Below the pieces are notes generated by a model. It did no database searches. It worked only from the letters and a program-made list of their open reading frames with translations, and was not told where the DNA came from. This document shows, in pieces, positions 3,595 through 42,442 of a stretch of 64,000 nt of DNA; position 1 is the stretch's first letter, and each line of letters opens with the position of its first letter. The stretch lies in the UHGV virus genome UHGV-0210596. The stretch is one strand, 5' to 3'. Origin of the DNA: a virus. A program made the translations under genes and the position numbers.

Positions 3595-4168
3595 CTTTGA
3601 GGGCGAATAAACCTTGATAGCCGTTGGCAATCGTGTTTTTGACGATTTCCAGTGCTTGCTTCGGGTCGTTGTTGGACTTCTTGATTAATTGTTCGTATCC
3701 GATGCGTTCCGATTTTTCCGATTTGTACGGGCGTTTGGTTTCCTTGCGGTAATCGAGCCAAAGTTGCCACGGCTCGGCAAATTCGGGGGCGACAAAATCG
3801 GCGTCAACACTTAAAGTATTAGTTGAGATTTTGGATGTAATGGTGTGCCCTTGACTGCGCCCCTTAGTGCGCCCCTGACTGCGCCCCGTTCCTTTGTATT
3901 GCTCTATGTCACATATTGTTAGGTGCGCCCCTAAGTGCGCCCTTTGGTGCGCCCCTCGTGTGATTTTACCGCATTGCTCGAAAGCATCAAGCGCTGTGCG
4001 AACTTGCTTATATGTAACGCCGTTTTCAAGGGCAAAAGTTCTGCATTTTATCAGTACCTCGCCGTTTTCGTCAGCGGCAAACAGCAACGCGAGCCATATC
4101 CGCAACCTTTCGGGAGAACGGAATGTCGGGTCGTTAACCGTTTCCCGATTTATCGTTATCGTGTCCAT
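3461..4168 (-). CDS. Phage replication initiator (Rep/O-like)
   Basis: N-terminal wHTH-like region, LTICD..QY motif flanked by 4-aa repeats, C-terminal W..WLDYRKE....YKS...IANGYQGLF domain. Confidence 0.8.
   Translation of the reverse strand: MDTITINRETVNDPTFRSPERLRIWLALLFAADENGEVLIKCRTFALENGVTYKQVRTALDAFEQCGKITRGAHQRAHLGAHLTICDIEQYKGTGRSQGRTKGRSQGHTITSKISTNTLSVDADFVAPEFAEPWQLWLDYRKETKRPYKSEKSERIGYEQLIKKSNNDPKQALEIVKNTIANGYQGLFALKDERKDKRNNSAVRSGDDRYAALERAAATILCSNDAYGCSGNGQG
3844..3954 (-). repeat. Iterons inside rep (putative replication origin)
   Basis: TGCGCCC (GGGCGCA on minus) at 3856, 3868, 3880 and 3924, 3936, 3948, variant at 3844; 12-bp period, 44-bp step between blocks. Confidence 0.8.
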
Positions 4169-15025: not shown

Positions 15026-15871
15026 TTATACAATAGCATCCTTTGCTTTACGGACGTTAAAACCATTGTCATGCAACGCGTGGATGAAGCGCCGTCCGCG
15101 TTCGTTCCAAACGGTATACATTGACGACCCGATACTTCCGTCAGACCGCGTATAGGTCTGTGTGCGTGTCGCGGATAAATTCCAGCTTGCATAAGGTTGT
15201 TTCAGCATCCACATTCCCGATTGACGGAAGATTACGCCGGCTTGTTTAAGTTGTTTGTTGAGGCTGTGCGCGTCCATTCCCAATTCCTTTGCAATTTGGG
15301 TTGTGGTCATAGTGTTTACACTTTGCAGCGTGGTGTCGTAGTAGTTCACCTTTGGTGCTTGCTCTAAGATGGTTTGTTCGTTACGCGTGTTGGTGTTTTC
15401 GAGTTGTTGCAGTCTTGACTATTGTCGTGCAAGGGTGGCTTGGGCTATTTGCAGCGCCTTTGCCATTATCACCTCGGGCGAGTCATCGTCCTTAGCGGCG
15501 ATATATCCACCGGTCATTCGGATTTCGCGTAGAATCTTCTTGACGCCTTTCTTAAACAGTTTGGCTGTTGGTTTGCGGCTCTGCATAAGAACTTCGTACA
15601 AACCATTCTCTGTCAGCATCCATACGTTTCGATTTTGACCTGACACAAACATTGTTTGGGTCAGCTTTTCGTCATCATCCACCGTCTGCATCATCATAGA
15701 CACATCAGAGTGCCCAATAAAAGTTGCAACGTCTTTCGCCTTGAACAATGATTCTTCGGGTGTTCCGTAGATAATGAACGACTGCCCTACCACTTCCACT
15801 TCTTTAAGTGGCTGCACCGCCTTTGTTTCGTTTGTTTCCGGCATAAATAAATTGTCGATATTGTTTATCAT
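15026..15871 (-). pseudogene. BRO-N / KilAC antirepressor split by one in-frame TAG
   Basis: BRO-N (LTENGLYEVLMQSRKP) and KilAC (TTTQIAKELG) ORFs share a frame; TAG at 15419-21 is the only stop between them. Confidence 0.8.
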
Positions 15872-15928
15872 TTTGTTTTATGTTTATGGGGGTAGTTTGA
15901 AAATCATTGCTTGTCAACTCGGCGATTT

Positions 15929-16792
15929 TCATAGAAGCCTCAATGCAAAGCCGTCTCCACCGAACAATTTGTGGAGAAAGGCCAAACCTTTTTGAGTACA
16001 GTATGTGGTTATAGGGATGAACATCCGTCCGTCCGAACGTTGTATGGGTGCGCCCTCGACCACGGTAAAATATCCGGCATTTACGTATTTCTGTGCAGGT
16101 TCGTTGCTATGACGGAAAAGGATGCCGTGTTCGCGCAGTTTCTTGAACAATGTATTGCGGCCAAAATCGAGTTTGAGAATTTTAGCGGCTTGCGACATCG
16201 ATACGAGCGTGTCTGCGTTAAACGCGGTGTCGGCAAAATCTGCTTTGGGTTTGAGTTTGGCGATGGTGCGCTCCTGCTGCCGGTTGGAGGTTTCAAGTTT
16301 TTCTATTTGCCTCGCTTGGTCTGCCGCAAGTTGCAACGCCTCGGCAAACGATGTCGGGACTGCAAAGCCACCGTTTAGTTTTTCTTTTTCGAGTTCCTCC
16401 CAGCGATCTATGATTTTGGCGCGTAGGATTACATCATACCCGCTTGCCAGTAAGAAACACGCCTTTTTGTTTAAGTTGTACATGGAACGTGCTTCTCCTT
16501 TTGCATCGACGTAAGATGTTTCTGTGATTTGGTACTGGTTCGTGCCATTCCCAAAAGCAAAGTCAAGAATGGTTTTTTGAGAGCGTTCTGACAAATACTT
16601 ATATTGCGTTCTGTCTCCTCGATGATACTCTCCGTCAACCAATCCACATGTGGATTGGTTGGATTTGTTAATGGATTCCACCATCTTACGGATGTCTCGC
16701 ATAACATGTGCGTGTTGTTTGCCTGTAATCTCGGCGATTTGGAGACTGCTCATAGTTTGGGCGACCCCTGCAAGCGATTTCTCGTTTAGCAT
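15929..16792 (-). CDS. Rha-family / KilAC antirepressor
   Basis: MSSLQIAEITGKQHAHVMRDIR, SYVD, PTSFAEALQLAA, GRNTLFKKLR. Confidence 0.9.
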   Translation of the reverse strand: MLNEKSLAGVAQTMSSLQIAEITGKQHAHVMRDIRKMVESINKSNQSTCGLVDGEYHRGDRTQYKYLSERSQKTILDFAFGNGTNQYQITETSYVDAKGEARSMYNLNKKACFLLASGYDVILRAKIIDRWEELEKEKLNGGFAVPTSFAEALQLAADQARQIEKLETSNRQQERTIAKLKPKADFADTAFNADTLVSMSQAAKILKLDFGRNTLFKKLREHGILFRHSNEPAQKYVNAGYFTVVEGAPIQRSDGRMFIPITTYCTQKGLAFLHKLFGGDGFALRLL

Positions 16793-16865
16793 AATTTGAT
16801 TATGTGTTTGATTATTATTGGCTAAAAAAAGCGGCCAACGCAAATGCGTCAGTCGCTTAGAGAAT

Positions 16866-16894
16866 AAAAAAAGGGCAGGAATAATATCCTGCCC
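16866..16894 (-). terminator. Intrinsic terminator closing the repeat-containing transcript
   Basis: GGGCAGGA-TATTAT-TCCTGCCC then T7 on minus strand. Confidence 0.8.
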
Positions 16895-16932
16895 TCGGCG
16901 AAAGGAAAATTAAATCCTACTTTGCTTATCGC

Positions 16933-16964
16933 GTTTCAATTCACGCAACCCCGAAGGGCGCGAC
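16933..16964 (-). CRISPR. Solitary type I-C CRISPR repeat
   Basis: GTCGCGCCCTTCGGGGTTGCGTGAATTGAAAC; 32 nt, I-C layout GTCGC..hairpin..GCGTG.ATTGAAAC. Confidence 0.85.
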
Positions 16965-16978
16965 ACTTCCGCCTTTTT

Positions 16979-16997
16979 ATCTACAATAGTAGAAATT
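16979..16997 (-). CRISPR. Solitary type V-A (Cas12a) repeat handle
   Basis: AATTTCTACTATTGTAGAT, matching the 19-nt mature Cas12a handle pattern AATTTCTAC-N4-GTAGAT. Confidence 0.88.
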
Positions 16998-17041
16998 TTC
17001 TTGGCGACAAAAGACTCGCGTCAATTGCCGTTTGGATGCCG

Positions 17042-17073
17042 CAAATTTAATGGTTTGCATCTTGCCAAACAAA
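17042..17073 (-). promoter_or_regulatory. Bacteroidetes-type promoter driving the repeat transcript
   Basis: TTTG 17070-73, N20, TAAATTTG 17042-49. Confidence 0.75.
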
Positions 17074-17106: not shown

Positions 17107-17206
17107 TGTGGGACAGGCGCGAGTTGAACGCGCTTACGGCTGTATTCAGCAACACCACGACAGATAATGGCGTCTCGTAGGCTTCCGTGTCTACGACTTC
17201 TGTCTC
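17107..17206 (-). ncRNA. tRNA-like element I
   Basis: GAGACAG/CTGTCCC+ACA; T arm GCGCG-TTCAACT-CGCGC; non-canonical middle. Confidence 0.6.
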
Positions 17207-17313: not shown

Positions 17314-17390
17314 AGTGGACGCAAGCGGAGTCGAACCGCATATACACCCTTGGAAACGCCGACAAAACAAGGGGTATCACCGTGGCGTCC
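17314..17390 (-). ncRNA. tRNA-like element C
   Basis: GGACGC/GCGTCC+A; T arm GCGG-TTCGACT-CCGC; CCCTTG/CAAGGG stem with long loop; no D arm. Confidence 0.6.
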
Positions 17391-17467: not shown

Positions 17468-17530
17468 TGGCGATGCGGCAGGACTCGAACCTGTCCGCTG
17501 ATAAGCGGCATCCCAAGCGAACACCGCACC
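17468..17530 (-). ncRNA. tRNA-like element D with encoded CCA
   Basis: GGTGCGG/CCGCATC+G+CCA; T arm CAGG-TTCGAGT-CCTG. Confidence 0.6.
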
Positions 17531-17547
17531 GCTTGTAGAATCCTCGC

Positions 17548-17718
17548 TTATTTGGCAGCTTCGACGGATACCTTGCGGAACTCTTTCAGTGCTTTCTCGA
17601 TTTCGAGGGAGGCCTTGCGAGCGCGTACGCCGGCAGCTTTGTTCCCACCTTGTGCCTTTGCGGCGTTGGTGGAAAAGTCCTCGAACAATGCCGAGATTTT
17701 TACAATCAATTCTTTCAT
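17548..17718 (-). CDS. Histone H1-like (Hc1-type) small basic protein, 56 aa (not in ORF track)
   Basis: MKELIVKISALFEDFSTNAAKAQGGNKAAGVRARKASLEIEKALKEFRKVSVEAAK. Confidence 0.85.
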   Translation of the reverse strand: MKELIVKISALFEDFSTNAAKAQGGNKAAGVRARKASLEIEKALKEFRKVSVEAAK

Positions 17719-25801: not shown

Positions 25802-26026
25802 GGGCGCACCAAAGGGCGCAGTCAAGGGCGCACCTAATCACTTATAGCACAATGCGCTGCAAAGGAGTTGGGCGCACTTAGGGGCGCACCTAAGGGCGCA
25901 CCCCGAAAGCGGTTGCCGTGCGCCTAATAACACAAACGACAACACAAACGATAACACAATTAACGCACATATAGACAGCGCATTGTCGCGAAGTGCAACA
26001 CATGGAGCAACACAAGCTGCAACACA
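25802..26026 (+). repeat. Two intergenic iteron-like modules
   Basis: GGGCGCA at 25802/14/26 and 25870/82/94; AACACA at 25929/41/53 and 25997/26009/26021. Confidence 0.85.
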
Positions 26027-29958: not shown

Positions 29959-30049
29959 AGTAGGATATGTTTATGTTACACAACCGGGCGGATAATCCGC
30001 CCACGCACCCGGCCTAATGCCTGTTTATAGTCGCCGGGCCGACCTTTGT

Positions 30050-39583: not shown

Positions 39584-42355
39584 TTATCTAAGTAAATTCT
39601 TGTTCCAACGGTTTTTAGCCGCATAAGCAAATGCCGAATACAGATTATTGTATACAAACGGAGACGCTGTCGGCAGCGGTGCCTTCTTCGGTCGAGCGTC
39701 AAGCTCGAAAACCGCACGCAGGCAAATAGCGTCCATTAAGTCCGGTGAATGTCGGAACTTAGCACGATACTCATCCTTAGAGCGGTAGTATATACGTTTG
39801 TTTCGCGTTGTAGTTGCAAACACGTTAATTTCGTCATACAGAATATCGCGGATAGTTCGTGTTGCCCCACCCTTTGCGTAAGGGATACGCAAATCTGGAG
39901 ATAATGAGCAAGCAATATCGCCTCGTTTAATCATCACCTCCGTTCGACCGAGCAATTGCGAGCGGCAATTAAAATAATCATCCCGAGTTACGGCGTTTCC
40001 GAACTCGTCAACCTCCTGTATCGCCCGTTTGTTAGCCGTAACCGCCACGCCGTTAGTCAGCCCCTGCATCCAATATCCGTGTCCCGTAGCGTCATAAGCG
40101 AAGCGTGTAACGTCAACGCCGTAAGCGTTAAGTTTAGTTTTAATCCATCCCGCTATTTCGTTAGGTTCGCCCGAGAACAGCTCGACCCCGACAATTTGCA
40201 GTCCGCGCCATATCACCATAGGCGACTTATCGTTATCCGCCTTACCCGAGGAAATGTCCATGGTAGCGTACATGTTGACGTCATCGCTTACGGGGTTTAG
40301 CCACAGATTGTTAATCATTTCGCGCGACACGTTGATTTCCTCCGTTTCCACTTCGCCGAAATATCCCTCGCCCACAATTTGGCGTTGCTCCGCGCCCGTA
40401 GCGTGTAGATTTGCGACAGATTGTCCACCCGTAGCGTTCACCAATTCGCGGTTAGAAGCGGCAGTACCCGTCAGCACCGTAAACGACTTCACGTAATCCA
40501 AACGCGAGATACCTGCGGCCAAATCGTCGGGTCGGTCGATAAGGCCTGCTGCGTCCGCTACTTCCTCGCGAGAGTCCCCCCAAACGATTTCGGCAGGAGA
40601 TTTACCCTTATTATACCAATATCGGACTTTGCCAATCATATCCTTACGCAGATACCAATCAGCGCCGATGTAGCCTGCATCGCATAGCATTTGAGTAGTC
40701 CAATGGTCGTGAGACGGGTTAAAGGATAATACCATTTGCGGTGTCATTCCCGAGCTGTCGCGGTTACGGCTAAACCAATATGCGAACATCTTAAACTCCT
40801 TCATTTCCGTAGCCTCGTCCACCATTATCAGAGACGCCTGCACTTTCTTAGCGTAATCTTGGAACTGTTCCCATTCCGCGGGGTTGTTTACATTAAAATT
40901 AGAGTGAATAAGTTGCAGCGAGCTATTCCATTGCGGCCACGAGAAAGTCGGGTAATCCGCCGAATTATACTCGCAGTTAGCGAAATTGCCGCATACCGTA
41001 ACACCGTCACGGAACATCGAGCCGCCCTTTTTGCTATCCTGCAAGCGGACGGAAATCAGTTTAGCCGCAAAGCCATAGTGCGTAACTCCCTGTAAAGCAT
41101 TGAGATACATTGCGAAAGTGTTGTGCGTAACGATAAAGTCGTCAGTCACATACAGATGCTCGGCGCCCGAAACCATAATGCAGCGGCATTGTTTTTTGCC
41201 GACATACTCACATTCTTTGAGCGTATGCCGCAATGTCCCCTTTCCGCGCCTAAACCCATCAAAAGTGCGAGACCGTTTAGAAGTCAGTCGGCACAAGTCG
41301 GTATTATGTTCCGTGTTGATACTTAAAACATAACACAGTTGACCCTCCTTCCTTTCGCCATTGTAAACATAGTGGGGGCGTTTAAGGGTAATATGACATC
41401 TGCCGCCGAGAGACCTCACAATCCATTGAACATCAGTGGCTAATTGATGACTGACCGTGTAGTAAAATATGTGTCCGTTCTTATCAACCGTACCGTCAGT
41501 GTCAATCAAACCCTGTAATAAAGCACGCCGAGATACTATATCTGAATACTTATAAATTTCGGGAATAAACTTTTCGTTAGAAAGTTTATGAGCCAATCCT
41601 AATTCACGAATATGCCTCACCAGCCCTTGTCCGCTGACCCGATAATCGCAATTATCGCCACTTAACTTGGCCGCTTTGTAGCCTGCGGCACGTACTGCGG
41701 CGATGATTTCATCTTCGGGGTTTGATAAAAAGGTTTGATATTTGCGGAAATGTCCGTCACCGAGCAATATGCCCAGTATATATGGGTCTATTGGCAGCGC
41801 CTTTGCGGCGAAATCAATTTCAGAGCAAAACGGAATGGCAACCTTACGACCTGCCTTAAACTTCGCCAATACATCTTCGAGTCGTTCCACTTTCCAGTCG
41901 CTATAATTGTTGTGGGCGGACTTGTATTGCACTTTCCAAAGATGGTTTTTGCAGCATTCCGTTTGTGCGCCGTCATCGAAAGTCAAGCGCCAAACGTCTA
42001 TTTCGCCTTGTTCGAAGATGTTTAGCACCCTTTGTGTTGAATTATCGGGGGCAAGGATTGCATCTCCGATGTTAAGCGACCCCATTTCGACAAATCCGTT
42101 AGGGGTTAAGACCTTGCTTGTATATGGTTGCGCCTTTCCTGACGTTGCTTGACCGCAGATAAAAACGAGGTTAGCTTCGCTTTGGCAGAGTTGTTCTTGC
42201 AGTCCCGGTTGTGGGATGAGGTCAATTTGGTTAGGTCGCAACTCGTATCCGTCCACCAGCGTTCGGCTTTTGCTTTTGGAGGTCGCAAGGATGCGTTCCG
42301 CTTCGGGATAAAGCGGCGGAAAGACCAATCCTTTTTTTGCGAGTGTGAATTTCAT
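39584..42355 (-). CDS. terL: Terminase large subunit with intein
   Basis: PQPGLQ, Walker A GQATSGK/T, Walker B IMVDEA, SFNP, nuclease MD.S...D and SPDLMDA. Confidence 0.9.
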   Translation of the reverse strand: MKFTLAKKGLVFPPLYPEAERILATSKSKSRTLVDGYELRPNQIDLIPQPGLQEQLCQSEANLVFICGQATSGKAQPYTSKVLTPNGFVEMGSLNIGDAILAPDNSTQRVLNIFEQGEIDVWRLTFDDGAQTECCKNHLWKVQYKSAHNNYSDWKVERLEDVLAKFKAGRKVAIPFCSEIDFAAKALPIDPYILGILLGDGHFRKYQTFLSNPEDEIIAAVRAAGYKAAKLSGDNCDYRVSGQGLVRHIRELGLAHKLSNEKFIPEIYKYSDIVSRRALLQGLIDTDGTVDKNGHIFYYTVSHQLATDVQWIVRSLGGRCHITLKRPHYVYNGERKEGQLCYVLSINTEHNTDLCRLTSKRSRTFDGFRRGKGTLRHTLKECEYVGKKQCRCIMVSGAEHLYVTDDFIVTHNTFAMYLNALQGVTHYGFAAKLISVRLQDSKKGGSMFRDGVTVCGNFANCEYNSADYPTFSWPQWNSSLQLIHSNFNVNNPAEWEQFQDYAKKVQASLIMVDEATEMKEFKMFAYWFSRNRDSSGMTPQMVLSFNPSHDHWTTQMLCDAGYIGADWYLRKDMIGKVRYWYNKGKSPAEIVWGDSREEVADAAGLIDRPDDLAAGISRLDYVKSFTVLTGTAASNRELVNATGGQSVANLHATGAEQRQIVGEGYFGEVETEEINVSREMINNLWLNPVSDDVNMYATMDISSGKADNDKSPMVIWRGLQIVGVELFSGEPNEIAGWIKTKLNAYGVDVTRFAYDATGHGYWMQGLTNGVAVTANKRAIQEVDEFGNAVTRDDYFNCRSQLLGRTEVMIKRGDIACSLSPDLRIPYAKGGATRTIRDILYDEINVFATTTRNKRIYYRSKDEYRAKFRHSPDLMDAICLRAVFELDARPKKAPLPTASPFVYNNLYSAFAYAAKNRWNKNLLR
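41120..42133 (-). mobile_element. 338-aa class 3-type intein with LAGLIDADG homing endonuclease
   Basis: Begins AQPY, ends VTHN/T; HLW, CRCI, LGILLGDG and LQGLIDTDG motifs. Confidence 0.9.
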
Positions 42356-42372
42356 ACAACCGTGGTTTTGTG

Positions 42373-42442
42373 CAAAGGTACGAATTTTTATTAAAGTTTT
42401 ACTCAAAATATTTGTTGTAATCAATTAGGTGTATTATATTTG
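42373..42442. promoter_or_regulatory. Divergent promoters for packaging and head-tail operons
   Basis: Minus TACCTTTG 42373-80; plus TTTG 42411-14, N20, TATATTTG 42435-42. Confidence 0.7.

Follow-up and report, generated by a model that had tools for sequence, protein, structure and literature searches.

The window analysed here, a stretch of 64,000 nucleotides of the virus genome UHGV-0210596, belongs to a temperate tailed phage with genes for an integrase, RecT, a tape measure protein, terminase and a major head protein. Because the named homologues of its RecT and Hc1 proteins come from Bacteroidales (Muribaculaceae, Bacteroides, Odoribacter, Parabacteroides and Dysgonomonas), we infer a Bacteroidales host. 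A Pfam scan of 65 of its ORFs found no cas family, in line with the earlier note on this DNA, which had recognised no cas gene. The unit studied here is intergenic and lies on the minus strand, ~7.5 kb from the integrase gene, with an Hc1 histone-H1-like gene upstream (17548..17718, minus strand; Pfam PF07432) and a Rha/KilAC antirepressor gene downstream (15929..16843, minus strand; Pfam). No Acr family was found among its neighbours with Pfam, PHROGs or NCBIfam, and most of these neighbours belong to no known family. Since the flank on the antirepressor side differs in the relatives G001, L056 and G002, we place the Rha/KilAC gene outside the unit. Within 15026-16843, the Rha-ANT gene separates the unit from a Bro-N gene; it is missing at this site in G001 and is therefore a variable insert. 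Protein searches returned eight loci for Rha (31-54% identity) and only G001 and G002 for RecT.

Several further features were observed in the same genome. Three tRNA-like small RNAs lie upstream of the unit on the minus strand (17468-17532, 17314-17390 and 17108-17206). They combine an acceptor-like stem with a T-loop arm, lack a normal cloverleaf and were missed by ARAGORN; the first gives a weak tRNA-Sec match (E 0.008, below gathering). G001 keeps their stems with paired changes, and G002 is without the third copy. A Pistol ribozyme (29979-30044, minus strand) scores above the Rfam gathering score, and the terminase large subunit gene (39584-42424, minus strand) contains an internal LAGLIDADG homing-endonuclease region that is likely an intein. 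Two clusters of short G+C-rich repeats, mutually inverted and near resolvase genes (3843-3955 and 25802-25902, the latter directly after the integrase), are possibly recombination or inversion sites.

The earlier note had described a promoter, a Cas12a handle, a 14-nt linker, a type I-C repeat, a 38-nt segment and a terminator on the minus strand, and all of these elements were recovered where it had placed them. The promoter (17042..17073) consists of TTTG at -33, 20 nt and the -7 box TAAATTTG, an arrangement (TTTG-N20-TAnnTTTG) that we take to be the Bacteroidota promoter form. Seven sites of the type TTTG-N18-22-TAnnTTTG occur in the window, this one among them, against 1.36 expected. Transcription of the unit would start near 17037, followed by a 5' leader hairpin (17005..17030, minus strand; 6 bp, a 2x2 U loop, 3 bp and a tetraloop) that possibly protects the RNA end. 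The 19-nt Cas12a (type V-A) crRNA handle (16979..16997, minus strand), assigned by motif match and stem probability, stands alone in the window, with no further match when up to three mismatches are tolerated (chance mean 0.04). It is followed by the 14-nt pseudo-spacer of the Cas12a unit (16965..16978, minus strand), which comprises five A and then the 5' arm of a helix termed P1 (16966-16973).

Next on the same strand comes a type I-C-like repeat of 32 nt (16933..16964), with a stem containing one bulged U, a UUCG loop and an 11-nt 3' handle (16933-16943). It is the sole match in the window to a degenerate I-C pattern with one mismatch (0/100 shuffles); its stem has one extra U relative to G002, and it is identical at 26/32 positions to the repeat of a real I-C-type array (L064). 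Neither repeat of the window reached a family in an Rfam search. The 38-nt pseudo-spacer of the I-C unit (16895..16932, minus strand) holds the 3' arm of P1 (16897-16904), and an intrinsic terminator with a T run (16866..16896, minus strand; stem called at 16871-16896) closes the unit. A second conserved hairpin with a T run lies 3' of the terminator (16823..16857, minus strand) and was found both in the consensus fold and as a terminator call. Sequencing run X18, flagged as probably DNA, extends beyond the terminator and speaks neither for nor against expression. Each repeat type is present in a single copy in the window, with the V-A and I-C repeats 14 nt apart.

The region of the unit folds better than 200/200 shuffled sequences (z -3.7). 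The stem of the Cas12a handle has a probability of 0.89-0.99 in the window. The leader hairpin reaches 0.49 in the window precursor and shows one two-sided change in the consensus fold; in a variant contig of wastewater run X1, positions 17027 and 17008 change together and preserve the leader pair. Predicted helix P1 pairs 16966-16973 with 16897-16904 and thus joins the 14-nt linker to the 3' end of the 38-nt segment, spanning guide positions 6-13 of the Cas12a unit. Its probability is 0.43 in the window precursor, ~0.9 after the Cas12a cut and 1.0 in G002, and a change at 16969 in contig X9 converts a P1 G-U pair to A-U. Positions 16897-16904 also have an alternative partner, closing a hairpin on nt 1-8 of the I-C segment, and in both the window and G002 the I-C segment, once released, is predicted to be able to fold back on itself starting with its first nucleotide. 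The two predicted products co-fold at -48.1 kcal/mol versus -40.3 kcal/mol apart. The canonical I-C stem has a probability of 0.08-0.26 in the window precursor and 0.9 in G002, and it is present in the consensus fold. A pairing of the leader with the 14-nt linker, still the lowest-energy fold of the precursor, was abandoned because the variants favour two distinct elements, the leader hairpin and P1.

The earlier note had proposed looking for the cassette in related phages, and the two-type unit is indeed found there. It is complete in G001, a complete genome of 65.8 kb with 87% mean identity to the window, and also in L056 and in contigs of wastewater runs X1-X4. The Cas12a handle is lacking in G002 (77% identity), L039 and L047, which retain the promoter, the leader hairpin, the I-C repeat with the 25 nt that follow it and the terminator; in G002, the -7 box and terminator are preserved despite changes. 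Between such relatives, the handle behaves as a precise ~20-nt module that sits between short direct repeats in some of them and is missing in others. In the pig-gut contig X9 (depth 9.4), a change at 16992 disrupts the handle stem. The X1 variant contig, to which a contig in X4 is similar, has no substitutions in 16850-16997 versus nine in 16998-17049 (Fisher p=3e-6), so that conservation sets in precisely where the mature handle begins, although this boundary could instead be a recombination junction. None of the relatives seen differs in nucleotides 1-20 of the I-C segment, not even at 77% identity between the phages, and no compensatory change was seen there.

To survey viral contigs more widely, we used two scans. 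The first searched for the Cas12a handle plus one A, blind to any I-C repeat, and gave 76 loci, dominated by one family of 30. An I-C-type repeat adjoins the handle in 38/76 of these loci versus three matches in 741,564 flanking bases; it precedes the handle in 37 and follows it in one (G001). Counted by flank cluster, the I-C repeat stands beside the handle in 4/33. The second scan was designed for the order I-C then V-A, the reverse of the window, and gave 63 loci, of which 30 lie on contigs of the first; after these duplicates had been removed by contig name, both scans comprised 109 distinct contigs. Sixteen of the 33 new contigs of the second scan are without an I-C stem and were left out (the L204 group of nine, L221/L230/L238, L253/L261, L259 and L265). 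By a strict rule, I-C then V-A is found in 51/109 distinct contigs (81 loci before de-duplication), and in 54/109 with three added by eye. These units fall into eight flank clusters and the pair L223/L242; the two-type pairing thus recurs across at least eight unrelated gene neighbourhoods.

The units share their architecture with that of the window: a -7 box lies within 60 nt of the I-C repeat in 62/81 loci, and the linker has the window's length of 14 nt in 56/81. Five phages of the family, several with incomplete records, have 0-5 proteins in common with the window or with each other and carry one unit each; the window's capsid protein has no match in the four of them tested. Profile searches, one of them with PF09704, found no cas12a or cas5 in the family phages tested, while their positive controls were recovered. 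In five contigs (L211, L262, L256, L242 and L223), a third, I-B-like repeat lies inside the same promoter unit.

The make-up of the family varies. In the three-type units, the I-B-like repeat lies inside the closing helix, followed by I-C and then V-A, with two I-B-like copies in L211 and L262. The copy in L242 is identical by eye at 25/28 positions to an I-B row of the Racr table (PMC10651486) and gives a weak Rfam match to CRISPR-DR2 (E 0.067). L221, L230 and L238 (the family-B locus) carry a permuted variant: a 3' piece of the I-B-like repeat, 8 nt, the Cas12a handle and then the 5' piece. Members of family C (L134, L208, L212, L220, L237, L244 and L246) have two I-C-like repeats before the handle. 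In L140, L131, L158, L160, L155 and L162, single-type versions of the same design, a lone Cas12a handle, mostly at a Bacteroidota promoter, is followed immediately by a hairpin; in L002-L005, a lone handle lies just downstream of a tRNA-like T-loop sequence. An AT-rich phage group (L204, L207, L210, L217, L226, L241, L243, L249 and L264) carries ATTGAAAT 28 nt before a Cas12a-like handle, possibly by chance, without the I-C stem. A 3-bp GUC/GAC helix with a 2x2 U loop occurs at window 17005-17030 and, permuted, in the closing helix of L211, L242 and L256, a likeness that is weak because 111/7054 control windows show it too.

Across the family, the pseudo-spacers are kept as structure. Among 13 distinct linkers of at least 12 nt, 11 differ in sequence yet fold into a hairpin of 4-5 bp that begins at base 1, while the same test on 14-nt slices of real spacers gave 0/36; the two linkers without the hairpin include that of family C. 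In an alignment of 15 units, the covariation score of 0.26 (versus 0.12) is reached by 0/500 shuffles, although this control is inflated because the aligned sequences are related. The repeat stems of both types are 100% paired in these units, and the handles are nearly invariant in most members. Two-sided changes affect 3/5 pairs of the I-C stem and 2/4 pairs of the linker, where pairing is only 63% because of loop-length misalignment. When the 24 nt after the Cas12a handle were folded, 14/16 representatives reached -4 kcal/mol or lower; 7/36 real spacers reached -3 kcal/mol or lower in the same test. Insertions make the A-run of the seed longer in some close relatives than in others; such changes, which a guide would presumably not tolerate, would fit decoys. 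An ensemble measure of seed accessibility does not separate the products of the window from real crRNAs (I-C: 0.32 versus a real median of 0.41, n=185; V-A: 0.45 versus 0.55, n=36). The I-C segment of the window itself does not covary but is invariant, a pattern that is compatible with a guide as well.

No target combining a PAM and a seed match was found in the window, G001 or G002. For the I-C segment, viral contigs contained no targets beyond chance: 18 viral loci with TTC plus the seed show no meaningful extension past the 15 positions searched (best 23/38 overall). A search of 50,697 phage records gave no spacer match beyond chance; for the V-A segment, the target search covered the window, G001, G002 and the phage collection. 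Host copies resembling CreR were sought in two scans. The genome scan, for the handle with the first 7 nt of the segment, gave one unrelated array only, and the metagenome scan gave 81 loci, namely three phage relatives and otherwise unrelated arrays or chance matches. These scans looked for repeat-plus-spacer copies, as opposed to host promoters. BLAST against plasmids and phages gave chance matches only, and the two cas12a plasmids found are both from Butyrivibrio.

The known RNAs closest to the unit are Racrs, RNA anti-CRISPRs derived from solitary repeat units, among them RacrIC1 and RacrVA1-3. Experiments have shown that individual Racrs of types I-C and V-A inhibit their respective systems and compete with crRNAs (PMC10651486). 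Like these, the unit is a promoter-driven repeat mimic on a phage, intergenic and away from cas genes, and both of its types have been tested as Racrs. It differs in joining two repeat types (three elsewhere in the family), in its hairpin-locked pseudo-spacers and in having no known acr gene next to it. Because its two repeats are only 14 nt apart, it is also not solitary in the Racr sense of having no other repeat within 100 bp, and the published Racr finder, as described there, discards full matches at most 100 bp apart as arrays. In the Racr table, neither the I-C copy of the window nor those of the family were found, and only two unrelated V-A rows were (PMC10651486).

Cracrs consist of a pseudo-repeat, a short pseudo-spacer and a terminator, a form that the unit shares. 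Cracr arrays also place several units on one transcript, include V-A and I-C types and compete with crRNAs, but all Cracrs within an array are stated to be directed at variants of a single type, and the hosts listed belong to Pseudomonadota, Bacillota and Actinomycetota (10.1101/2024.10.29.618823). Cracrs also require a PAM-flanked promoter match, with at least nine PAM-proximal bases that match a cas or creT promoter or recur in a host CreR or CreA. The unit, in contrast, mixes V-A with I-C and keeps its pseudo-spacers as structure, and no match of this kind came from the scans, which sought repeat-plus-spacer copies. Host crlRNAs (CreR, CreA and the I-C CRISIS regulators; 10.1101/2024.12.27.630466, PMC10120712) resemble the I-C half in their single I-C repeat, 11-nt 5' handle and segment ending in a 3' hairpin. 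These RNAs are encoded within cas loci and match a promoter close by, whereas the unit is phage-borne and of mixed type, with no target found. Viral CRISPR mini-arrays (PMC11656645) likewise have few repeats and no cas genes. The repeats of the window are of different types; no two like repeats enclose a spacer with a match in another virus, and the searches above yielded no protospacer. rAcrIIA1 (10.64898/2026.06.03.729762) and vsgRNAs (10.64898/2026.06.01.729453) are also phage RNAs that fuse two CRISPR RNA parts, but there the parts are the crRNA and tracrRNA of one system (Cas9), whereas the unit joins different systems and classes. The earlier note knew of no tandem hybrid of this kind. 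A literature search, whose reach mostly excluded subscription papers, showed no multi-type RNA anti-CRISPR: described RNA anti-CRISPRs and arrays address one CRISPR type, and a multi-type unit is apparently new.

The best reading, which we hold to be somewhat more likely than not, is that Cas12a and Cas5c process a single RNA into a pair of non-targeting decoys. The unit would be transcribed from ~17037 to 16866 as one RNA of ~170 nt. Host Cas12a would cut just before 16997, as suggested by the 19-nt handle of CracrVA1 (10.1101/2024.10.29.618823), and Cas5c would cut between 16944 and 16943, leaving an 11-nt handle as in the I-C crlRNAs of 10.1101/2024.12.27.630466. The expected products of 54 nt (16997-16944) and ~78 nt (16943-16866), possibly still paired through P1, would both occupy Cas proteins without offering a usable guide and compete with real crRNAs, so that the phage would be protected in a host with either system. 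With a hairpin right after the I-C handle, little room would be left for a Cas7 backbone, and mainly Cas5c may be trapped. That some relatives have the handle and others lack it would fit a module whose value depends on the CRISPR type of the host. The earlier note had claimed such a dual decoy, and this claim is strengthened by the recurrence of the I-C/V-A pairing in unrelated phages with structure-conserved, sequence-variable pseudo-spacers, while for the I-C half a guide reading, which the note had not considered, still stands beside it.

In that reading, which we regard as unlikely, at least the I-C half acts as a Cracr-type guide that steers host Cascade to bind, and not cut, the promoter of a host cas, toxin or defence gene, with the Cas12a half serving either as a decoy or as another short guide. 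A layout of a single repeat, a brief spacer and a terminator is described for phage Cracrs of both V-A and I-C type (10.1101/2024.10.29.618823); nt 1-20 of the segment are invariant, and the segment read backwards resembles the region of a Bacteroidota -7 box. Pairing, however, largely explains the invariant bases, the pseudo-spacers of the wider family covary as hairpins and shift by indels, and neither the genome scan nor the metagenome scan found a host CreR-like copy. It is less probable still that only one system is addressed and that the second repeat aids maturation or stability, a host nuclease trimming or protecting the other decoy. I-C-only forms (G002, L039 and L047) and V-A-only forms (L129, L140, L158 and L160) exist, and the I-C stem of the window folds weakly, but most members retain every recognition feature of both repeats, both repeat orders occur and five contigs add a third type.

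That the locus is a DNA-level relic or recombination substrate, with repeats captured for integration into arrays or without function, seems very improbable to us. The handle does behave as a precise ~20-nt module between short direct repeats, and PMC10651486 names integration into arrays as a further role for repeats of this kind. Against this stand the unit's own promoter and terminator, the covariation of its RNA structure, its distance of ~7.5 kb from the integrase and its presence in unrelated phages. The prospect of a mini-array aimed at competing phages through host Cas proteins we consider most remote of all: no second flanking repeat of either type is present, segments that are only 14 nt long or locked in a hairpin do not suit cleavage, and the searches gave, for the I-C segment in viral contigs, those 18 loci without meaningful extension and, in the phage records, no match beyond chance.

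Returning to the two decoys, the unit is one member of an apparently undescribed multi-type family. We see an even chance that Bacteroidales phages share modular "poly-Racr" RNAs, in which two or three repeat types (I-C, V-A and I-B-like), stacked on a single short transcript and each followed by a hairpin-locked dummy spacer, disarm both classes of CRISPR system together; the window would then represent the reverse-order form, with products possibly tethered by P1. If this is true, such a compact natural RNA, active against class 1 and class 2 immunity at the same time, would be to RNA anti-CRISPRs what broad-spectrum inhibitors are to the other anti-CRISPRs. Its design rule, a handle followed by a hairpin-locked dummy spacer, could serve to switch off tools based on Cas12a and Cascade, and the dozens of natural variants provide built-in controls that make the idea cheap to test. 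For the phages themselves, such RNAs would explain how gut Bacteroidales phages manage when the CRISPR type varies from host to host.
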